From an uncultured Chloroflexia bacterium (GTDB lineage Bacteria; Chloroflexota; Ktedonobacteria; Ktedonobacterales; JADMIN01), in assembly GCA_963718915.1 (NCBI GenBank), contig CAVRAI010000009.1, positions 180,001 through 212,000 of the forward strand: a DNA stretch of 32,000 bases, in the 5' to 3' direction. Below, one piece after another: positions 1,727-28,702 of the stretch. Numbering within the stretch: position 1 is the first letter of the stretch; each line of letters begins with the position of its first letter. The notes below the pieces were generated by a model that saw only the letters and a program-made list of their open reading frames with translations, made no database searches and was not told where the DNA came from. Made by a program: the position numbers and the translations under genes.

Positions 1727-2641
1727 ATGCCATCCGCGAATGTCTATGATATGGACGGCCAGATCGTCCGAGAAGAACATCTGGATAACTATGTGTTTGG
1801 CGCGCCAATCAATATGGCCGTGCTGCACCAGGTGGTGACGGCGCAGTTGGTGAACCGGCGGCAGGGAACGGCCTCGACCAAGACCCGCGCTGAGGTGAGT
1901 GGCGGCGGCAAGAAACCCTATCGTCAGAAGGGCACAGGCCGCGCGCGTCAGGGTTCCACCCGCGCGCCACACTGGCGTGGCGGTGGCACGGCCTTTGGCC
2001 CGCGCCCGCATGCCTATGAGCGCGCGATCCCGCGCAAGATGAAGCGCATCGCCATCCGGGCGGCGCTTTCGGACAAGGCGGCGAATGGGCGCATCCTGCT
2101 GATGGAGCGGATTGAGATCAACGCGCCGCGCACCAAAGACATGGAGGCGCTGCTCAGCAACCTGCCCGTCACCCGGACGGTGCTGATGCTGTTGCCGCAG
2201 CGTGACGAGAACGTTATTCTCTCGGCGCGTAATATTCCCTCGATCAGGCTCGGACATGTCGATTCCACGAACGTGATCGAGTTGCTCAAATATGACCACC
2301 TGCTGATGACGCTTGAGACGGCGCGCATCCTGGTCAAGAAGTTTGGCCGCGACGCCGATGACCGCCTGCAAATGAAGCGGCATCCGAATGTGGTGCTGCG
2401 GCGCAGGGCGCGCGCGGCTCATGAAGCGGCGAAGCTGGCGGCGTCTGGTAAGGCCACCGCGACCACGAAAACAACCAGAACGGCGAAGGCTGAGACGAAG
2501 GCGGACGAGAAGGCTCCGAAAGCCCCCCAGACGACGAAGGCCGCGACAACGACGGCCAAGGCTGACGCAACCGCCGAGAAGGCGCCGAAGAGCACCCGCA
2601 AGCGCGCCACCGAAAAAGCTGAGAAGGGCGGGGAGGAATAA
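1727..2641 (+). CDS. rplD: 50S ribosomal protein L4 with ~90-aa Lys/Ala/Thr-rich C-terminal tail
   Basis: GGGKKPYRQKGTGRARQGSTRAPHWRGGG motif. Synteny after rplC. GAGGAG RBS. Confidence 0.93.
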   Translation: MPSANVYDMDGQIVREEHLDNYVFGAPINMAVLHQVVTAQLVNRRQGTASTKTRAEVSGGGKKPYRQKGTGRARQGSTRAPHWRGGGTAFGPRPHAYERAIPRKMKRIAIRAALSDKAANGRILLMERIEINAPRTKDMEALLSNLPVTRTVLMLLPQRDENVILSARNIPSIRLGHVDSTNVIELLKYDHLLMTLETARILVKKFGRDADDRLQMKRHPNVVLRRRARAAHEAAKLAASGKATATTKTTRTAKAETKADEKAPKAPQTTKAATTTAKADATAEKAPKSTRKRATEKAEKGGEE

Positions 2642-2644
2642 ACG

Positions 2645-2962
2645 ATGGAGATTACCGAGGTTATTCGTCGCGGTATTCTGACCGAGAAATCGTCCGCCAT
2701 ACAGCAGCTCGATAACGGGCGCGGCAAGGTCATCCCGCAGTACACCTTCGAGGTGGCAATTGGCGCGAACAAGTTTCAGATCAAGCAGGCCGTCGAGGCA
2801 ATGTTCAATGTGAAGGTTGTCAGCGTCAATACGATGCGTATGCCCGGCAAAGCGCGCCAGATTCGGACGCGCAAGGGCATTTATCACGCTGAGGCTCACC
2901 CGTGGAAGAAAGCCATCGTCACGCTGGCTGACGGCGAGAGCATCGCGCAGTTGCAGCCATAG
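2645..2962 (+). CDS. rplW: 50S ribosomal protein L23
   Basis: 105 aa, ILTEKS...YTFEV...ANKFQIKQAVEAMFNVKV L23 pattern. Synteny. Confidence 0.93.
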   Translation: MEITEVIRRGILTEKSSAIQQLDNGRGKVIPQYTFEVAIGANKFQIKQAVEAMFNVKVVSVNTMRMPGKARQIRTRKGIYHAEAHPWKKAIVTLADGESIAQLQP

Positions 2963-2986
2963 GCGACGTTCTGGGAGGACGCAAAC

Positions 2987-3823
2987 ATGCCAATTCGTGT
3001 GTATAAGCCGACATCACCAGGACGACGCAACATGTCGGTCTCGACCTTTGATGAGATTACTCGCTCCCGCCCGGAGCGCTCATTGGTCGCGAAGAAGAAC
3101 AGTCGTGCTGGTCGCAACAACGAGGGCCACATCACGGCCCGACATCGCGGCGGCGGGGTGAAACGTCGCTACCGTGTCATCGATTTCAAGCGCAACAAGT
3201 ACGGCATTCCGGCGAAGGTCTTCTCGATTGAGTATGATCCGAATCGCTCGGCGCGTATCGCGCTGCTGCACTATGTTGACGGCGAAAAGCGCTACATCCT
3301 CGCGCCGAATGGCCTGAAGGTGGGCGACCATGTGATGAGCGGCCCGGAGGCCGATATCCGCGTGGGCAACGCATTGCCCCTGCGCAATATCCCGACCGGC
3401 ACCGTCATCCACAACATCGAGATGCACAAAGGGCGCGGCGGGCAGATCGTCCGCAGCGCGGGCACGGCGGCGCAGTTGATGGCGAAGGAAGGCGATTACG
3501 CAATCGTGCGTCTGCCTTCCGGCGAGCAGCGAACCATCCATCTCGAATGCATCGCGACGGTGGGCCAGGTGGGCAATCTCGACCACGAGAACGTGCGCAT
3601 CGGCAAGGCCGGACGCTCGCGCTATCTGGGACGCCGCCCGCATGTGCGCGGCTCGGTGATGAATCCCGTGGATCACCCGCATGGTGGTGGTGAGGGGCGC
3701 GCGCCAATCGGCGGCCAGCCACAGACTCCCTGGGGCAAGCCAGCGATGGGCTTCAGAACCCGCCACAACAAGCGGACTGATAAGTTTATTTTGCGACGTC
3801 GTAATGCCGGCAGGGGCCGGTAG
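2987..3823 (+). CDS. rplB: 50S ribosomal protein L2
   Basis: 278 aa, [15 protein letters not shown]...[14 protein letters not shown] canonical L2 motifs. Confidence 0.97.
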
Positions 3824-7667: not shown

Positions 7668-8309
7668 ATGGCGACACCAAAAGCGACACCAAAAGCGACA
7701 TCAAAGGCGACATCAAAGGCGACATCAAAGGCGGCGCCACAGGCGGCGTCAAACACGCCAAGACTGAAAGAGCGCTATCGCAAAGAGATCGTTCCGGCGC
7801 TCATGAAAGAATTCAGCTACTCGAATGTCATGCAGGCGCCCGTTGTCCATAAGATCGTGATCAATATCGGCATGGGCGAGGCGATCCAGAACGCGAAGGC
7901 GATGGATAACGCGGTACGCGACCTGAGCGATATTACCGGCCAGCGGCCAGTGGTCACCAAGGCCAAGCGCTCGGTGGCGTCGTTCAAGCTGCGCGAAGGC
8001 ATGGCCATCGGCTGCACCGTGACGCTCCGCGGCGCCCGTATGTATGACTTTCTGGATAAGCTGGTAAGTGTGGCGCTGCCACGCCTGCGCGACTTCCAGG
8101 GTGTCTCGCGCGACTCATTCGATGGGCGTGGCAACTATACCCTGGGCATTCGCGAGCAACTGGTCTTCCCGGAGATCAATTACGACAGAATCGACAAAGT
8201 GCGCGGCATGGAGATCACTATCGTGACCACCGCCCGCACCGACGAAGAGGGGCGTCACCTGCTCCAACTGGTGGGCATGCCGTTCAAGCATCAGCAGACC
8301 CAGGTGTAA
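7668..8309 (+). CDS. rplE: 50S ribosomal protein L5 with N-terminal ATPK/ATSK repeat
   Basis: [18 protein letters not shown]...[28 protein letters not shown] canonical L5. N-terminal 28 aa encoded by a 12-bp tandem repeat. Confidence 0.94.
7671..7754 (+). repeat. 12-bp tandem repeat (5 near-perfect + 2 degenerate copies) inside the rplE 5' end
   Basis: gcgacaccaaaa x2, gcgacatcaaag x3, then gcggcgccacag and gcggcgtcaaac. Read directly from the sequence. Confidence 0.85.
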
Positions 8310-8330
8310 GGCGTAAGGCGTAAGGCGTAA
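8307..8330 (+). repeat. 7-bp tandem repeat (TAAGGCG)x3+TAA starting at the rplE stop codon
   Basis: TAA at 8307, 8314, 8321 and 8328, so stops fall in all three + frames. Confidence 0.9.
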
Positions 8331-8462
8331 GCCAGCTATAACTCGTTTATGACGTTTGTTCTTCAAGAGTACCGCGATATGCGGGACTAAGGGCCCGGAA
8401 ACCGGTGTGAATCGTTGCACTGTTCCACCGAAGCCTGGTCCCTCGCCCTGGAGGGGGCAACG

Positions 8463-15519: not shown

Positions 15520-15887
15520 CAGAGGCTCGGATGGGTCAGCGTGTCTGGCGTCGGCTAGCGTCGGCCGCCGCTGACCCAGGGCGAGGCGCATCGCGGAGAT
15601 ACCTGGATGGTTGAGAGCAGTCGCGACTGGCGGTGCGAAGATGCTGATCGCATCGCGCACGGTTGCCCTCTGGGTGCGGGTGTCTCCGCTGGCGACTAAG
15701 CGGCGAAGTACTAGCGCGTGAGACGGTGCGTGTTGCACATGCGTCCAACTATAGAGGGTTGGGCATTGTCGCATTCCTCACCGCAGGTATGGCAGACGGG
15801 CATAGCGTGATATACATTCCTGTGACCTGAGGGCTGGCTTAGCCTGGGTGGCAGTGATTGGCATGATCTTGCGTGGGGGGGGGTGGA

Positions 15888-15917
15888 GTGATTGGCAGTG
15901 ATTGGCAGTGATTGGCA
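15888..15917 (+). repeat. 10-bp perfect tandem repeat GTGATTGGCA x3
   Basis: Read directly. There is one dispersed copy at 15854-15863 and a degenerate copy after 15918. The repeat sits 23 bp upstream of the rpmJ ATG. Confidence 0.85.
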
Positions 15918-15939
15918 GTATGGTTGGCGGAGGGTTCGC

Positions 15940-17028: not shown

Positions 17029-17469
17029 TCCGGCTTTCTGTCTGGCTCACGCCGGACTGACGCGGGATGATTTCTCTGGCGGCTGGCGCATATGCGCCGC
17101 TGCATAATGGATATTCCTGGATTCCCAGATACCGGCATGCGTTGCTCTGGTGACGTGCGCCGGACATTGCACGAAAGATGCGCGTCAAGCGACCTGGAGT
17201 GCGTGTTCGTGAGGCCCGCCTTCGTCCTGGGCGGTTCTGGACTGGCCCGCAAGTGAGTCAGTCGCATGGGGAACGTGTGTAGCCCGCTGCTTCCCCTGAT
17301 AGCCTCTCGTTGCACGCCGCGCGAGGAAGCGCGCGATGGCGTCTTTTGGGATGACGTGACTGTTTGTTCGCGCCTGCTGGCGCTGCGGCTGGTGTCGCGG
17401 GCGGCGAGATAGTGACGGCACGATTCCGAAAGCGCGCAACAGGCTCTCTGGCAACGGGCCAGGGCGCAT

Positions 17470-17499
17470 GAACAACGCTGAACAACGCTGAACAACGCC
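17470..17499 (+). repeat. 10-bp tandem repeat GAACAACGCT x3 (third copy has 1 mismatch) in the rpsK-rpsD spacer
   Basis: Read directly from the sequence. About 90 nt upstream of the rpsD ATG. Confidence 0.85.
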
Positions 17500-21897: not shown

Positions 21898-21936
21898 AAT
21901 ACCCCCTCCCGATGGCGGCAGGGGGTATTTGTGTTG
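21898..21936 (+). terminator. Rho-independent terminator of the rplM-rpsI unit
   Basis: Perfect 10-bp stem AATACCCCCT (21898-21907) with AGGGGGTATT (21920-21929), 12-nt loop, then TGTGTT. Confidence 0.75.
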
Positions 21937-21959
21937 CTGGCTGGCGGTTAAAACCGCAC

Positions 21960-22160
21960 CTGAATGGCCTGCTGCCGCGCGGCTGGGTGGTCGAGCGGAC
22001 TTTCGCCTGGATTGGGCGCAATCGGCGGATGAGCAAGGACTACGAATTCCTGCCCACCACCAGTGAGACCTGGGTCTATCTGAGCATGGTGTGTCTGATG
22101 CTCAAACGCCTGACACACGAGCAGGTGCAAACGACCTTCCATTACCGCCGGGTGGCGTAA
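21960..22160 (+). mobile_element. IS5/IS4-type (DDE_Tnp_1-like) transposase, C-terminal remnant only
   Basis: [51 protein letters not shown] matches the conserved (R)[17 protein letters not shown] tail of IS5-family transposases. No N-terminal or catalytic region precedes it, because the upstream sequence is the rpsI terminator. Confidence 0.7.
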
Positions 22161-22202
22161 ACCCGGATGTAAACCCCGAAAGTAGGCCTTTGTGTACAGC
22201 CT

Positions 22203-22634
22203 TTAGGGCTGGATGAGGTGTGGAACATAATAGGTGCGCAGATCCGGGAGTCCTCCACTCGAGATCTCGTACTGTTCACCACAAACAGGGAGGGTAGCTA
22301 CTGTCTCAAGTGTCAAGCCATGCCAGAGGAACACATACGAGGCACTATAGTAGCTCAATGGAGCACACGTACCCGGCCCTTGGCCAAACAGCAGTTTTCC
22401 CGATGGCGTTGCTGTCGCGGCCGCGTGCCACCGAGCGACCGTCGCAGGGTCGGTGATCGTGCCAGACTTTGTGATGGCAGGGCCGCCGTTGTTGGTAAGT
22501 TGTGTCTCGTAGTGTACCGCGTCTGGCGTGAGCAGCCGCACACCGATCTCGAATACGGCAACCAACGCAACAATGAGGAGAGCCATCGCCACGAGTTTCC
22601 GAAGCCAGTTGCGTCGGGAGGCTACCGATTGCAT
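22203..22634 (-). CDS. Hypothetical N-terminally membrane-anchored protein (143 aa)
   Basis: RRNWLRKLVAMALLIVALVAVFEIGV is a positive-inside TM anchor, followed by a ~110-aa extracytoplasmic domain with 2 Cys. AAGGGTGGA RBS. No family recognised. Confidence 0.55.
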   Translation of the reverse strand: MQSVASRRNWLRKLVAMALLIVALVAVFEIGVRLLTPDAVHYETQLTNNGGPAITKSGTITDPATVARWHAAATATPSGKLLFGQGPGTCAPLSYYSASYVFLWHGLTLETVATLPVCGEQYEISSGGLPDLRTYYVPHLIQP

Positions 22635-22726
22635 CTCTCAGATCCACCCTTCTCTTTGACGATGCAGCAATGGCGACACTGCGTCACCACTGCTGCTCCA
22701 TCGGCCGGCCCTATGCCTGTTACCTG

Positions 22727-23737
22727 TTAGCAGTATGATGTGCCAGAGTTGTGGTAAAACGTCGCGAAGCTGTTCCCGCCCGACACAGTGGAATTGTCGG
22801 AAAGGTCAACACCATTTTGATACATATTCAGCTCAGCGTGCGAAAAGTACGTGAGCGGCTCGTTTACGTCGTTGGCATAGTTGCTGGATGCAGCACTTAA
22901 GGACCACCAAGAAACCGTGCCAAACGGCGTAAGCGCCCAGTTCTTGTTAGTGCCACAGCTTGTCCTCTCCACGATCCACTCGGCACTGTTGTTGCTAGGA
23001 ACAAAAGACTTGCTTGTCGACCAGTACTGCCCGTTGACATAATTGTACATGTACACGTACGACTTGCCCGGAACTGTCTGGTTGTAGTCCAAGGCTACGT
23101 AGACGGAATCGCCACATGCGACAGCGGGTCCGGCGTAGATGATGTTGGACCCAGGAACATATTCGTACCAGAACCGATAACCGTTCGCATGGTCTGTTTC
23201 TGTTCCAGCTTGCCAGAGGTTGCTAGAGTTGTAGCCTCCCAGTCCGATCCATTCCAGCGCGCGCTGTGAATTGCTTGTGCCCGAATAGCACGGCACATCC
23301 CACTCACCATTGATGAAATTAAACCCGCTCGCCGTGTCGGCATACCCCGACCAGTAGTCCCCGTTAGTTCCAGCGGTGCCAATGCCGGCGTGCGTGGAGA
23401 GTGTGTCAGTATGATACTTGCTGACAACCTCACCGCCGCAAATTCGTTGGCGAACATGTTGCATATTATCTACCCACGTCTGGTATGCTGGACCTTCGCT
23501 GGCATGCGGCAGCGGCAACCCGTAGAAGCGAAGTTGGGCTGCTGTAGCAGTTGTAGGATCCCAGCCCGTGGGCGGGCTCGGACACTCGCGACTTCCTGAA
23601 TACGTGAAACTGTCACCACTGCCGTTTTGCGACCGTGATGCTGCAAGAGCCTTCGGTGCAACTGTACTACCAACACCAATCGCTACAAAGCTCAGCGCCA
23701 GCGCCAAGAGTACTTTCATTGTACGTTTCGTCCCCAT
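22727..23737 (-). CDS. Secreted peptidase, G1 (eqolisin / scytalidoglutamic peptidase, Pfam Peptidase_A4-like) family candidate
   Basis: Signal peptide MGTKRTMKVLLALALSFVAIGVGSTVAPKALAAS after an AAAGGAG RBS. Motif series YWSGY / EWIGLGG / LWQAGT / FWYEYVP / AEWIVER parallels NWGGA / AWVGIDG / ILQTG / AWYEWYP / AEFIIED of scytalidoglutamic peptidase as I recall it. This includes candidate catalytic Gln (codon 23212-23210) and Glu (22969-22967). Confidence 0.7.
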   Translation of the reverse strand: MGTKRTMKVLLALALSFVAIGVGSTVAPKALAASRSQNGSGDSFTYSGSRECPSPPTGWDPTTATAAQLRFYGLPLPHASEGPAYQTWVDNMQHVRQRICGGEVVSKYHTDTLSTHAGIGTAGTNGDYWSGYADTASGFNFINGEWDVPCYSGTSNSQRALEWIGLGGYNSSNLWQAGTETDHANGYRFWYEYVPGSNIIYAGPAVACGDSVYVALDYNQTVPGKSYVYMYNYVNGQYWSTSKSFVPSNNSAEWIVERTSCGTNKNWALTPFGTVSWWSLSAASSNYANDVNEPLTYFSHAELNMYQNGVDLSDNSTVSGGNSFATFYHNSGTSYC

Positions 23738-23774
23738 GTTCGGGATGGCTCCTTTTTCTACATGGATCACTACC

Positions 23775-23980
23775 AATCGAGGGTCTTCCTGCCAACCGAG
23801 TAATCGAGGGTCTTCCTGCCAACCGAGTAATCGAGGGTCTTCCTGCCAACCGAGTAATCGAGGGTCTTCCTGCCAACCGAGTAATCGAGGGTCTTCCTGC
23901 CAACCGAGTAATCGAGGGTCTTCCTGCCAACCGAGTAATCGAGGGTCTTCCTGCCAACCGAGTAATCGAGGGTCTTCCTG
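23775..23980. repeat. Perfect 27-bp tandem repeat, 7 full copies + 17 bp
   Basis: + strand unit AATCGAGGGTCTTCCTGCCAACCGAGT begins at 23775, 23802, 23829, 23856, 23883, 23910, 23937 and 23964. I can see no mismatches. Confidence 0.95.
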
Positions 23981-24015
23981 CTTTCCGCTTATTGATGAGT
24001 TAATTCGATGGGCAA

Positions 24016-24044
24016 AGCATACATACATTTCTTCAAGATGTCAA
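24016..24044 (-). promoter_or_regulatory. Putative sigma70-type promoter of the peptidase gene
   Basis: Minus strand TTGACA (24044-24039), 17 nt spacer, TATGCT (24021-24016). It lies upstream of the 27-bp array. Confidence 0.45.
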
Positions 24045-24120
24045 TAGGCGATTCAAGATAGCGTGAATTGCCGACAAGTTCAGCGCATCTGATTATGATA
24101 TCCATCTTGTAGCAAGTTCA

Positions 24121-24157
24121 GCAAAGTAAAAGCTCCTGACCAGTGATGGCCAGGAGC
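24121..24157 (-). terminator. Rho-independent terminator of the TPR/membrane protein gene
   Basis: Minus strand GCTCCTGGCC-atcact-GGTCAGGAGC (9/10 pairs, 24157-24132) followed by TTTTACTTTGC. It lies 30 nt after the stop at 24187. Confidence 0.6.
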
Positions 24158-24186
24158 AGCTGATAGGGTGACGTAGAAACGCGGTG

Positions 24187-25443
24187 TTATCTGGCGCGGC
24201 GGCCCTCGAAGCGCGCCAGCAGACGCGGCCAGAAGTAGGCTGCCAGCGCGCCCAGGATCAGCGCGACCGAGCCGGTGATGGAAAGGGCATTCGGGTCGAA
24301 CCAATTCTTGTTTTGGAAGACGTTGACCGCCAGCAACTGGAAGAGCCAGAGCGCCAGCGCGAAGCCGCCGATCACCGCGAAGCCGATGGCGGCGATAGTT
24401 GTCATGCGCGCCTGCGGGTCACGCGGCAGGATGGAACCCTGGAGCGTGCGCACCGAGAAGAACGCGAAGAAGCCAACCATCGCCAGCACCAACACCGAGA
24501 CAAGCCAGCCGCCAACCGCCGGAATGTTCCCGATGCCGAAGAGAATCAGGAAGGCGATCACGACCAGGATGCCGACCAGCACATAGGGCGCGCGCGTGCC
24601 AAAGGGGCTGAGCGCCATATTGACACCCGCCAGCGCCGGGGCCGCCCAGAGCAGCCGCCCGTTGAGCCGCTGCGCCGTCAGATACTCGCCGTAGGAGCGC
24701 CGCCACTGGCGCTTCTTGAAGTAGATGCGCCCGCGCAGACTGTGCGTATTGGCGCTATTGAGCGTCGGATTCTGCCGCTCGGCGGAGTCGAGCGCGTCAA
24801 TGGCGTCATCATAACGCCGCACGTCGACGAGCGCGTTCGCCTTGATAACCTCCGCCTGGGCCAGCGCGCCCGGACCGAGCGTCGTCCGGCCATAGCGAAT
24901 CGCCGAGTCGGTCGCCTGCACCGCGCCCGCCGGGTCTTTATCGCTCATCAGGATAACGGCGCGCATCAGGTGCGCGTTGGGCGAGCGCGGATCGAGGCGG
25001 CAGGCCTCTTCGATCTCGGCGCGCGCCACTTTGAAGTCGCGTTTGGAGGCCATCACCTCGGCCAGCTGCACATGCGCGTTGGCGTTGCGCGGGGCAAGCT
25101 GGATCGCCCGGCGCGCCGTCTCCTCAGCCTCGGGCGGGATACGGAAGCCGCTCTGCTGGGTCAGCGCGGCGGAAAGCGAGAGTAGCGCATCGACATTTTT
25201 GGGCTGCTCGCGCACCACCCGGCGGATTTCGGCGAGCGCCTCGGTGTTACGCCGCAGTTGCAGTAAAATCTGCCCCAGCAGCAGGCGCGCCGAGGCATCG
25301 TCGGGGCGGCGTTCCAGTTGTTTACGTGTCAGCCGCTCGGCCTCCACCGCATCGCCGTTGGCCAGCGCCAGCTTGGCCTTGCCCAGCGGGCCAGCGGGAA
25401 CCATACTGGCGCCCTGGTTGCCGCGAAACGACATTCGATTCAT
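24187..25443 (-). CDS. TPR-repeat protein with C-terminal multi-pass membrane domain
   Basis: The N-terminal ~250 aa are helical TPR-like repeats (AEAERLTRKQLERRPDDASARLLLGQILL..., NAHVQLAEVMASKRDFKVARAEIEEACRLDP...). The C-terminal part has about 4-5 hydrophobic helices (YVLVGILVVIAFLILFGIG, WLVSVLVLAMVGFFAFF, IAAIGFAVIGGFALALWLF, ITGSVALILGALAAYFW). Start chosen at ATG 25443 (MNRM). The N-terminus is uncertain, since the ORF is open to GTG 25551. Confidence 0.7.
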   Translation of the reverse strand: MNRMSFRGNQGASMVPAGPLGKAKLALANGDAVEAERLTRKQLERRPDDASARLLLGQILLQLRRNTEALAEIRRVVREQPKNVDALLSLSAALTQQSGFRIPPEAEETARRAIQLAPRNANAHVQLAEVMASKRDFKVARAEIEEACRLDPRSPNAHLMRAVILMSDKDPAGAVQATDSAIRYGRTTLGPGALAQAEVIKANALVDVRRYDDAIDALDSAERQNPTLNSANTHSLRGRIYFKKRQWRRSYGEYLTAQRLNGRLLWAAPALAGVNMALSPFGTRAPYVLVGILVVIAFLILFGIGNIPAVGGWLVSVLVLAMVGFFAFFSVRTLQGSILPRDPQARMTTIAAIGFAVIGGFALALWLFQLLAVNVFQNKNWFDPNALSITGSVALILGALAAYFWPRLLARFEGRRAR

Positions 25444-26002: not shown

Positions 26003-26112
26003 GTGCATGTTTCTTGCGTATATCCTGCGTATATCATGCGCGTTTCTCGCGTGTTCCTCGCATAGTTCTCGCATATTCCGGGCATAGCGCGGGCATTGCG
26101 GCAGGCATTGCA
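26003..26112 (+). repeat. About ten tandem degenerate 11-bp units with GC(A/G)T at fixed phase
   Basis: gtGCATgtttc ttGCGTatatc ctGCGTatatc atGCGCgtttc tcGCGTgttcc tcGCATagttc tcGCATattcc ggGCATagcgc ggGCATtgcgg caGGCATtgca. The array ends 17 bp before the ATG at 26129. Confidence 0.65.
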
Positions 26113-26128
26113 GAAAAGAGTGATTCCC

Positions 26129-28702
26129 ATGGATGTTGTGCAATTTGGACGGTGGCTTGGGGAGCGCCGTCGCGCCTGCGGCTGGACCAGCCAGCGCGCG
26201 CTGATGGATAGCGCGCTGGAACACCCCCACACACGCGATCTGGGGATCTCGGAGGCGTTTCTTGCGCGTCTGGAGGCTGGATTGCTGGCCTATCCCTTCC
26301 GCGGCGCGGTACGGAAACGTGTACTGGCATTAACCTGGCTGCTGTGCAAGTCGTCGCGTCAGACACGTGAATATCTGCGACTGGCCGGGCTGGCCGATCT
26401 GAGTGTTGAAGAACAGGAGATGGTGCGCACGGTGCTGGCGTCATTCAGCGATGCTACCCCTGTCGCGCCGCCGCTGCTGCTGCCAGCGCGCCCGCCACGT
26501 CTGCTGGGGCGAGCCGCCGCGCTCAACGAACTGCTGCGCACGCTGCGTACCGTGGAGACCGGGCTGTGTGTGGTGACGGGCATGCCCGGCGTCGGCAAGA
26601 GCGCGCTCGCCGCCGAGGCGCTGCACCTGATTGCCGCCGACGAGCGCGCGCGCCACGAGCTCTTCCCCGATGGCATCGTCACATTCAGCGGCGTCGGGCG
26701 GCGTGGCATGGGTGGCCTGCTGGCCCTGCTCGACGAACTGTGCGCGGTCTTCACCGCCGAGTCGTCGTCGGCGCGCGCCTCCACGCGACGTAGCGAGAAA
26801 CCCGCCTCCTCAGGCGAGCGGCTGGCGCGGCCCGATGTGGCTGGCACGCTCAACCGCACGCGCTCGGTGGTCGCCGAAAAGCGGTTTTTGCTGCTGCTCG
26901 ACGATATGGACGCGCGCTTCCCGCTCCGCGACGCGCTCGACGCCGTGTTGGCGGCCGGGCACGCCGCTGGCGGTGTCGGTCCAGCTGAGGCTGAGCGGCG
27001 CGTGGTGCTGGTGACGAGCCGGTATGCGCCGGAGGCGGCGCTGATTCGCATTCGTCAGGATGTGTCGCCACTCGATGCCGATGCGGCGCTGGCGCTATTC
27101 ACGGCGCTGCTTCAGCGCGACCTGACGCCGAGTGAGACGCTGCACGCGCGCGCGATCTGCATGGCGGTAGGCAATCTCCCGCTGGCGATTGAACTGGCGG
27201 CAACAGCGGCGATCTCCGAAGGTATCCCGCTGCCGCTGCTGGCGGCTCGACTGGCCAGCCACGCGCTCGACATCTCCGCCGATAGCCGTCGCGAGCTACG
27301 ATTGCGGCTGGAGCGCGAGCTGGACGCGGTAGATACTGAGGTGCGCGAGTTGTTCGCCCTGCTGGCGCTGCTGGGGACGCCCGCGTTTACCCTCGAAGCG
27401 GCGGCGGCCCTACGTGACGCGCGCTGGCCGGAGCCAACGGCTACCGACGAGGTCATTCCTGAACTGGCGGCGCTGGCCCCCGATGACGTGGCTGATGCGG
27501 AGACGGCGGAAGATCGGCTGGCGCGTACCGCGGCGCTGCTGGGCCAGCTAGTGCGTCATTCGTTGTTGCGTATCGAAGGCGACGACGCTGGTGGCCATGA
27601 TGATGACGATGATAATGGAGACGATGGCGATGACGATGACGATGGACCTGGCCCGGGGAGCGGCGTAGGCTTGCGTTATCACCTGCAGCCGCTGGTCTAT
27701 GCCTGCGCGCGCGAGCGGATGGAGCAACTAGACCCCGCTATGCGCGAGCGCGCGCTGCACAATGCGCAGCGCTATGCCTTGAGCTATCTGTGCAAACATG
27801 AGGAGCATCCTCTCGCGCTGGCGCGTCAGCGTGACTTCCTACTGGCGATGGTGGCCCGCGCGGCACGGGGCGGACAGCACGCGCAGGTGCAGCGGTTTGT
27901 CTTCGGGCTGACCGCCTCGCAACACAATCTCCTTGCCCTTCGCGAACGCAGCGCCAACCTGTTCACGCTGGCCATTCGTAGCAGCCGTCTGTTACATGAC
28001 TCGATGTCCGAGGCGCGGCTACTCAACCGGCTGGGGCTGCTCTACTACTACGACGGCTCGACGGCGCAGGCCCGGACGGCGTGGGAGACGAGCGCCAACC
28101 TCTGCGCGGAGTTAGCGGCGCGCGGCATCGCCAGCGGTGGGCTGGCGTGGTATCCGCTCTACAATCTGGCCCAGTTGACCTGGGAGCTTGGCGAGCTTGA
28201 GACGGCGCAACAGTATGCCGAGATGAGCCTTCATCACGCGCGAGAACACTGCCCGACGATGGTGCTGCCATCGCTGCTGACTCGCGCCATGGTCGCCCGC
28301 GCGTGTGGCGATCTCGTCGCGGCCAGGGCCGATCTGGAAGCGTGTCGCGATCTGAAGACCGCGCCGATGGAGGTTGGGCCGGTGGCGACGCTGATCGCCG
28401 GACTGCGGCCATGTATCGAGGCGGAGATGGCGCGGGTGGAAGGGGTCTACCGCCACTCGGTCGCGGCAACCGAGAAGAGTGTGGCCTATTTTCAGGCCGA
28501 GGATGACCTGTTGAGCGCGGCCAATGTGCTGTTGGAGCAGGCGCGCTATGCCGAAGTCCAGGATTTTCGCGCCGATGCGCGGCTCTTCGCGTCGCGTGCG
28601 GTGGCGCTCGGACGCAAGGCGCATGCCGAATTCGTCCAGGCGCGCGGCAAGGAGCTATTACTCCGCCTGAACAACAGCACGAGTTGCGCTCAGCCCGGCT
28701 GA
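26129..28702 (+). CDS. STAND-class NTPase: N-terminal XRE-type HTH + NB-ARC ATPase + C-terminal TPR-like repeats
   Basis: MDVVQFGRWLGERRRACGWTSQRAL (HTH). Walker A GMPGVGKS (26579-26602). Walker B FLLLLDDMD (~26885-26911). VLVTSR. GNLPLAIELAA (the NB-ARC GxPLA motif). Poly-Asp insert. C-terminal LLNRLGLLYYYDG.., YNLAQLTWELGELETAQQYAE.. repeats. Confidence 0.85.
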   Translation: MDVVQFGRWLGERRRACGWTSQRALMDSALEHPHTRDLGISEAFLARLEAGLLAYPFRGAVRKRVLALTWLLCKSSRQTREYLRLAGLADLSVEEQEMVRTVLASFSDATPVAPPLLLPARPPRLLGRAAALNELLRTLRTVETGLCVVTGMPGVGKSALAAEALHLIAADERARHELFPDGIVTFSGVGRRGMGGLLALLDELCAVFTAESSSARASTRRSEKPASSGERLARPDVAGTLNRTRSVVAEKRFLLLLDDMDARFPLRDALDAVLAAGHAAGGVGPAEAERRVVLVTSRYAPEAALIRIRQDVSPLDADAALALFTALLQRDLTPSETLHARAICMAVGNLPLAIELAATAAISEGIPLPLLAARLASHALDISADSRRELRLRLERELDAVDTEVRELFALLALLGTPAFTLEAAAALRDARWPEPTATDEVIPELAALAPDDVADAETAEDRLARTAALLGQLVRHSLLRIEGDDAGGHDDDDDNGDDGDDDDDGPGPGSGVGLRYHLQPLVYACARERMEQLDPAMRERALHNAQRYALSYLCKHEEHPLALARQRDFLLAMVARAARGGQHAQVQRFVFGLTASQHNLLALRERSANLFTLAIRSSRLLHDSMSEARLLNRLGLLYYYDGSTAQARTAWETSANLCAELAARGIASGGLAWYPLYNLAQLTWELGELETAQQYAEMSLHHAREHCPTMVLPSLLTRAMVARACGDLVAARADLEACRDLKTAPMEVGPVATLIAGLRPCIEAEMARVEGVYRHSVAATEKSVAYFQAEDDLLSAANVLLEQARYAEVQDFRADARLFASRAVALGRKAHAEFVQARGKELLLRLNNSTSCAQPG

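Follow-up and report, generated by a model that had tools for sequence, protein, structure and literature searches.

The window, by which we mean the whole 32-kb stretch of Ktedonobacterales DNA analysed here, carries a gene for a secreted glutamic endopeptidase of the G1 (Peptidase_A4) family that is preceded by a perfect 27-bp tandem array (Table 1). The encoded protein has an N-terminal signal peptide, and an identical 336-aa protein is recorded in NCBI/ENA (P0001). A 99% identical protein (P0121) is named [quoted passage not shown] At every orthologous locus, a partner ORF lies directly downstream of the peptidase gene. Members of this partner family are 143-156 aa long, align at 40-62% identity, and have Cys, Trp, and His positions that are invariant. 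The partner may act as an inhibitor, in immunity, or in maturation.

Table 1. Features of the peptidase locus in the window. L003 is a related contig described in the text.
Feature	Position	Strand	Basis or detail
IS5-type DDE transposase remnant, C-terminal fragment	21912..22160	+	Pfam PF13586, E = 3.7e-8
Lineage-specific 2.2-kb cassette	21939..24123		blastn, gene maps, GC
Partner ORF, 143 aa, N-terminal membrane anchor	22203..22634	-	Gene neighbourhoods; no Pfam family
G1 / Peptidase_A4 glutamic endopeptidase gene, 336 aa	22727..23737	-	Pfam PF01828, E = 2.5e-20
Shine-Dalgarno AAAGGAG of the peptidase gene	23749..23755	-	11 nt before ATG 23737
27-bp tandem array	23775..23981	-	7 complete CAGGAAGACCCTCGATTACTCGGTTGG units and a 17-nt partial unit, all identical
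Sigma-70-like promoter TTGACA-17-TATGCT	24016..24044	-	Consensus scan 10/12; both hexamers unchanged in L003
Intrinsic terminator of the upstream TPR gene	24132..24157	-	11-bp stem and T run

The peptidase cassette and its transcription unit

The peptidase gene belongs to a cassette that appears to be a recent acquisition. Besides the peptidase and its partner ORF, this cassette contains the IS5-type remnant, the leader with the array, and the promoter, and its GC content is 0.54-0.56 against ~0.62 in the flanks. Nine related loci (L024-L032), recovered by an exact look-up of ribosomal protein L36, have an identical ribosomal-protein operon organisation, and the peptidase occurs in 0/9 of them. 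Their blastn homology to the window ends at 21938 and restarts at 24124, so the intervening segment is specific to the lineage represented by the window and by L003, a 3.7-kb contig from another Ktedonobacterales metagenome-assembled genome (MAG). A distant blastn search with the peptidase gene, its leader, and its promoter (22727..24123) returned no plasmid match.

Most of the nine relatives have, after rpsI, small ORFs and then the TPR gene and an AAA_16 regulator gene. The content of the rpsI-TPR junction differs among them: one or two small ORFs in L024, L026, L027, L029, and L032; abhydrolase, TetR, and aminotransferase genes in L025; and only an aminotransferase gene and a small ORF in L028. 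L031 is without the TPR gene. Because other relatives carry different genes at this position, the rpsI/TPR junction is a variable spot. Elsewhere, at 2563..3579 of both L021 and L022, a 67%-identical peptidase orthologue is split into ORFs of 123 and 192 aa and is probably a pseudogene. It adjoins an rve integrase fragment, which again ties the peptidase to mobile-element remnants.

The upstream TPR gene has its own strong terminator, and the peptidase is thus an independent transcription unit with its own promoter region. A consensus scan of 22100..24300 ranks TTGACA-17-TATGCT as the best promoter-like site and finds no good sigma-70-like site within or after the array. From this predicted promoter, transcription would start near 24009 and the array would begin at about +29, which would place it in the transcribed leader. 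The peptidase Shine-Dalgarno sequence forms a duplex of -8.4 kcal/mol with a generic anti-Shine-Dalgarno (anti-SD) sequence. Between 23775 and 23737, no terminator-like site is present on the minus strand, and the array runs straight into the ribosome-binding site (RBS) and the ORF. An earlier note on this DNA, made by reading the sequence, had described this promoter-like element, the AAAGGAG RBS, and the ATG at 23737, and had set the array between them. The sequence and the consensus scan agree on all of these elements and confirm that the array follows the one good promoter candidate and precedes the RBS.

Two direct copies of GCTGAACTTG, 38 bp apart, closely precede the -35 hexamer (24113..24122 and 24075..24084, minus strand). 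Both copies are kept in L003. The pair may represent a binding site for an activator or the scar of an insertion.

The 27-bp array and its copy number

The array is perfect. Tandem Repeats Finder (TRF), run on the window, reports a period of 27, 7.7 copies, 100% matches, 0 indels, and a score of 414 for 23775..23981. An exact search finds seven head-to-tail copies of CAGGAAGACCCTCGATTACTCGGTTGG on the minus strand at 23792..23980, in 27-bp steps, while the unit has exact matches in 0/100 dinucleotide-preserving shuffles. The terminal partial unit consists of the first 17 nt of the unit, CAGGAAGACCCTCGATT, and brings the array to 7.63 copies. Both methods thus confirm the perfect 27-bp array that had been noticed upstream of the secreted peptidase gene; of the “eight phase-exact copies” then described, the identity holds and the count becomes seven full units and a 17-nt partial one. 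The units abut, with no CRISPR-type spacers between them, and a CRISPR array is ruled out since the units are contiguous and lack unique spacers.

No further copy of the unit with up to three mismatches occurs elsewhere in the 32-kb window. Across 185,579 species-representative genomes, an exact-unit scan gave 0 matches and a protein-guided scan gave no relative. At 207 bp, the array exceeds short-read length, and a source assembly built from short reads alone would leave the exact count in the window uncertain. Independent support for the repeat itself comes from the L003 assembly.

Comparison with L003 reveals a difference in copy number between two closely related alleles. This contig has the same gene order as the window (TPR gene, peptidase, rpsI) and encodes P0121. 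It is 98.55% identical to the window at the nucleotide level over the 2210 bp that run from the post-array leader through the peptidase to rpsI, and 93.5% identical in the TPR gene. The L003 leader holds one full unit and the identical 17-nt partial unit, or 1.63 copies against 7.63 in the window. In a pairwise alignment, the sole length difference between the two leaders is a 162-bp in-register gap, which is exactly six units. The leader flanks differ by five substitutions in ~340 bp, and the promoter hexamers, RBS, and junctions are identical.

This clean six-unit indel indicates that the 27-bp array is a true variable-number tandem repeat (VNTR). Two features expected of a VNTR were found: a whole-unit difference with conserved flanks between L003 and the window, and head-to-tail copies of high identity by TRF and by exact search against shuffles. 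Furthermore, the seven window units are identical despite a regional divergence of 1.5-6.5%, which implies that their expansion or homogenisation is younger than the split of the two genomes. The earlier note had taken the zero divergence as a sign of recent copy-number change, and a 98.5%-identical relative with 1.63 rather than 7.63 copies bears this out.

Coding potential, RNA structure, and orthologous leaders

The array is non-coding. As had been described from the sequence, an in-frame ATG at 24028 opens a 433-aa ORF that passes through the array into the peptidase and gives QEDPRLLGW x7. All frames on both strands are open across the array because the unit has no stop codon. The ATG at 24028 falls within the promoter spacer without an RBS or Shine-Dalgarno sequence, and an extension from it would bury the signal peptide 97 residues into the protein. 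The NCBI model and all homologues begin at the 336-aa start with the signal peptide, and no homologue is extended. Neither an RBS-backed start nor an extension common to homologues, as would mark a protein-coding repeat, was therefore found. The preference for a non-coding role voiced in the earlier note is backed by these start sites, by the missing RBS at 24028, and by an orthologous array, described below, with a period of 19 bp.

The leader is predicted to be exceptionally unstructured. With the array, its minimum free energy (MFE) is -65.1 kcal/mol, compared with -89.1 +/- 4.8 kcal/mol in shuffles (z = +5.04), and 200/200 shuffles fold more stably. The array alone folds at -41.8, compared with -76.4 +/- 18.9 for arrays of permuted units, of which only 1% are as unstructured. 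GGA occurs eight times in the array, and neither the MFE nor the centroid structure contains consistent hairpins that present it. This lack of self-complementarity fits a tolerated 200-nt leader insertion and could also fit selection for an accessible, single-stranded platform, and so does not decide between the two.

Searches for known RNA elements were negative. No part of the window matches Rfam at the gathering threshold, and at E <= 1 nothing relevant is found in 23600..24200, where the only hit is a spurious snoRNA match on the TPR terminator. The AGGAAG of the unit pairs weakly with a generic anti-SD (-5.5 kcal/mol, compared with -8.4 for the real RBS), and on this ground a STAB-SD-like or standby-site role was rejected. 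A Rho loading site was likewise set aside: the unit, with 7 C and 8 G, is not C-rich over G.

Orthologous leaders suggest that the gene family does not depend on an array. Upstream sequence was recovered for orthologues from about nine lineages, and about seven of these nine have no array there, so the array is dispensable for the family. Upstream of the orthologues with 39-63% identity (L002, L005-L008, L011-L020, L022, and L023), we found neither a tandem array nor a significant match to the CCCTCGCGGTTG core, for which the best matches are no better than those in shuffles. Apart from the window/L003 lineage, L001 alone among orthologues with upstream sequence has a tandem array. Its peptidase is 64% identical at the amino acid level, and its array is a perfect TGTCCCTCGCGGTTGTCTG x2.7 with a 19-bp period (L001 1483..1533). 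This array lies downstream of a promoter-like CTGACT-17-TATACT, in a leader position comparable to that of the window array.

The two arrays may have a short core in common. The 19-bp and 27-bp units both contain CCCTCG and CGGTTG, in the same order. Two non-overlapping common hexamers occur in 8e-4 of permuted unit pairs, a statistic that is post hoc, and when the doubled units are aligned locally, p is 0.002-0.015 in four scoring schemes and 0.11 with a harsh gap penalty. On both strands of the 285 kb of fetched loci, CCCTCG-N0-8-CGGTTG is found only in these arrays and in one chance match. The sequence that precedes the L001 array, AGGAGGAAC..CCCTCG, also resembles the unit start AGGAAGA-CCCTCG. 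These likenesses weakly suggest that the L001 and window leaders are homologous in the CCCTCG...CGGTTG segment, which may be prone to amplification or favoured when amplified. The recurrence of this segment in L001 is the only hint of a selected motif. Conservation of the promoter and leader as a whole, which a MAFFT alignment of L001 and the window had made appealing, was rejected: tested against shuffles, the whole-leader alignment of L003 with L001 is not significant (p = 0.15 overall and 0.5 for the promoter part).

Two further elements flank the 19-bp array. Within L001 1460..1560, it lies between SD-like UAGGAGGA and GAAAGGAGGA, far from the start codon. Their duplexes with a generic anti-SD reach -10.2 and -12.2 kcal/mol, respectively, and strong SD-like elements occur only beside the L001 array. 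We take them to be reminiscent of STAB-SD mRNA stabilisers.

Tandem amplification in the clade and the nature of the array

Other intergenic spacers in the window and its relatives carry perfect short arrays. Just before rpmJ, the window has AGTGATTGGC x3.3, and the 10-bp element is present once in L024 and L025, twice in L026, three times in L027, and four to five times in the window. Upstream of rpsD, at a distance of ~90 nt, TGAACAACGC x3.0 is perfect in the window (17469..17498), with one copy in each of L026, L027, L029, and L032. AGGCGTA x4.3 covers the rplE stop codon in the window (8302..8331), while GCATAGCAG is found there x10.8 in L027 (2238..2335) and x2.8 in L026 (2264..2289). In the S5-L30 spacer, GTCGCTAG x4.0 is perfect in L027 (4968..4999) and L029 (4563..4594), is a single copy in other relatives, and is absent from the window.

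Several details of these spacers were also observed. The rpmJ element, GGCAGYGRTT at 15887..15919 of the window, directly precedes the rpmJ Shine-Dalgarno sequence and has an extra degenerate copy at ~15852..15861. A homopolymeric run of about 9-10 G lies beside these 10-bp repeats in the infA-rpmJ spacer (15866..15877). The 27-bp array also has GATTGG[C/T]AGTGAT at its 3' junction. All these genomes have an unusually long S11-S4 spacer, of about 480-640 bp. The rplE stop region is an array hot spot with units that differ by lineage, and the stop codon falls within the unit, so that stops are repeated.

The amplified units are local and specific to their loci, with lengths of 7, 8, 9, 10, 11, and 27 bp. 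Because each locus amplifies its own local sequence, the arrays point to a general mutational process rather than to one common functional motif. That process may be slippage, or unequal exchange after a small duplication. By this comparison, intergenic amplification is a habit of the whole clade, with the 27-bp array as its largest example.

The 27-bp array is probably a hypermutable minisatellite that lies in the 5' leader of a G1-peptidase cassette acquired recently, and it would have at most a passive, quantitative effect on expression. Whole units would be gained and lost by slipped-strand mispairing or by unequal recombination between identical units, and the 17-nt direct repeat of the short allele may have provided the seed for this turnover. 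Transcribed from the predicted promoter at 24044..24016, the array would lengthen the 5' UTR from ~110 nt in L003 to ~270 nt in the window, and would neither code for protein nor form RNA structure. It would be tolerated because its unit scarcely pairs with itself and offers no RBS-backed start codon. Any effect on the peptidase operon would be passive and quantitative, and a longer untranslated leader seems more likely to lower than to raise output, by analogy with Haemophilus influenzae hmw1A. The array would not be a dedicated binding platform for a titrated factor.

Three other accounts were weighed against this picture. An assembly artefact, either in the window count or in the short L003 allele, is improbable. 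Short reads size a perfect array poorly once it exceeds their length, and L003 is a 3.7-kb MAG contig; however, two independent assemblies agree on the unit, its phase, and the partial copy at the end. A perfect array is collapsed by assemblers, not expanded, which makes 7.63 copies more likely a lower bound. We infer that the L003 short allele must have read support, as its 44 nt of repeat fall below the final k-mer lengths in common use and the join therefore needs real reads. Similar copy-number differences also occur at several other loci in nine further assemblies. It is barely credible that the array is translated to give the peptidase an N-terminal QEDPRLLGW x7 extension. The frame is open from 24028 into the peptidase and a six-unit indel preserves it, but three frames on two strands are open merely for want of a stop codon in the unit, and the 19-bp period of the L001 array is not a multiple of 3. 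The position of ATG 24028 in the promoter spacer, its lack of an RBS, the signal peptide 97 residues in, and the 336-aa start used by NCBI and all homologues also argue against such an extension. The idea raised in the earlier note of a cis-acting sponge like CsrB/RsmZ, whose CAGGAAG motifs would titrate a CsrA-family protein or 30S subunits, fares little better and is very unlikely. The CAGGAAG at the start of each unit does agree with the CAGGA(U/C/A)G repeat of CsrB, and AGGAAG is partly complementary to the anti-SD. The marks of CsrB/RsmZ RNAs, namely GGA in hairpin loops, a match to a Csr/Rsm Rfam family at the gathering threshold or at E <= 1, and a stand-alone terminated transcript, are nevertheless all absent: the leader is less structured than every shuffle (z = +5.0), and no terminator follows the array. 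The anti-SD pairing is only -5.5 kcal/mol, the 1.6-copy allele of L003 means that a multi-site sponge is not conserved, and no csrA was seen among the listed and scanned ORFs of the 32-kb window. Compared with CsrB/RsmZ, with which it has the repeated GGA-containing CAGGAAG-type motif in common, the array also has identical rather than divergent units and a copy number that is not conserved.

A selected role is unlikely, although less easily dismissed. The array could be a cis-regulatory platform in which each unit is a site (core CCCTCG...CGGTTG, with or without AGGAAG) for a putative trans-acting protein or RNA, and in which copy number tunes occupancy or titration. The window/L003 and L001 arrays have both hexamers in the same order, the motif is confined to these arrays and one chance match in the fetched loci, and the L001 sequence before CCCTCG resembles the start of the 27-bp unit. 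The unit also falls in the least-structured 1% of permuted units and would be accessible as RNA. A related motif that recurs in arrays of two lineages is not predicted by a purely passive VNTR. Against this, the motif is absent upstream of all other orthologues, where the best matches are at shuffle level; the L003-L001 whole-leader alignment is not significant; the close relative L003 has only 1.6 units; and tandem amplification in the same genomes also affects unrelated intergenic segments. No factor that might bind the unit was identified. The periods of 27 bp (2.6 turns) and 19 bp (1.8 turns) are not multiples of a helical turn, which would set DNA sites on different faces. The same phasing, and the lack of any DNA-binding gene within the cassette, make an iteron-like array seem unlikely. 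An HTH-AAA_16/NB-ARC-TPR regulator gene does lie 2 kb away (26096..28702); it is also present in relatives without the cassette. A more ambitious form of this proposal, which we regard as doubtful, would make the array a maintained and concertedly evolving regulatory module. Its core, CCCTCG(N0-6)CGGTTG, possibly after an SD-like AGGA(G/A)G, would be the site for a putative Ktedonobacteria RNA- or DNA-binding factor, array length would set peptidase expression, and the intergenic amplifications of the clade would represent a general tuning by leader repeats.

As a VNTR, the array is well supported and is a case of a known kind, copy-number variation of leader or promoter tandem repeats, here found in Ktedonobacterales. 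The statement in the earlier note that no similar system was known is too strong, since repeat variation in a promoter or 5' UTR has been described in both H. influenzae hmw1A (PMC12721329) and Mycobacterium tuberculosis (PMC12817950). The promoter tandem repeats (PTRs, or intergenic VNTRs) of M. tuberculosis have units of tens of bp and phase-variable copy number, are obscured by short-read assemblies, and are reported to alter promoter strength (PMC12817950). Like the present array, they consist of head-to-tail units upstream of a gene, differ in copy number between lineages, and occur in an organism that is GC-rich and falls outside the classical contingency-locus pathogens. Unlike them, the array in this Chloroflexota (Ktedonobacterales) genome lies downstream of its predicted promoter and has no promoter-like hexamers in the unit. 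Promoter multiplication of the M. tuberculosis type was rejected, as no promoter-like site lies inside the array.

The hmw1A repeat is closer in position. This (ATCTTTC)n tract is transcribed in the 5' UTR, and expression is inverse to its length; the 7-bp unit acts through a long 5' UTR hairpin that is cleaved by RNase III (PMC12721329). Both repeats lie between the promoter, here a predicted one, and the start codon of a gene for a secreted or surface protein, and the present one would likewise be transcribed. The unit here is 27 bp, however, and its leader is predicted to be exceptionally unstructured. In Beggiatoaceae, Cyanobacteria, and Bacteroidetes, many TAACTGA intergenic direct repeats closely precede start codons, among them those of ribosomal-protein operons, and the author suspected that they act in translation (S1, Csp, CsrA) (PMC4679880). 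The short arrays before rpmJ and rpsD and after rplE in the window and its relatives are similar in placement. In contrast to the one heptamer used genome-wide in those taxa, each locus here has its own local sequence. A literature search on Ktedonobacteria and tandem repeats returned nothing relevant.

These comparisons document copy-number variation of a leader tandem repeat in Ktedonobacterales, a little-studied, actinomycete-like lineage of Chloroflexota. The amplification process acts at several intergenic spacers, even within the ribosomal-protein operon. The array itself appears to be an ordinary VNTR, and the clade-wide amplification and the L001 core are the parts most worth following. 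If copy number affects expression, the array would provide a simple heritable dial on a secreted protease, and it would also caution that such variation goes unseen in short-read MAGs.
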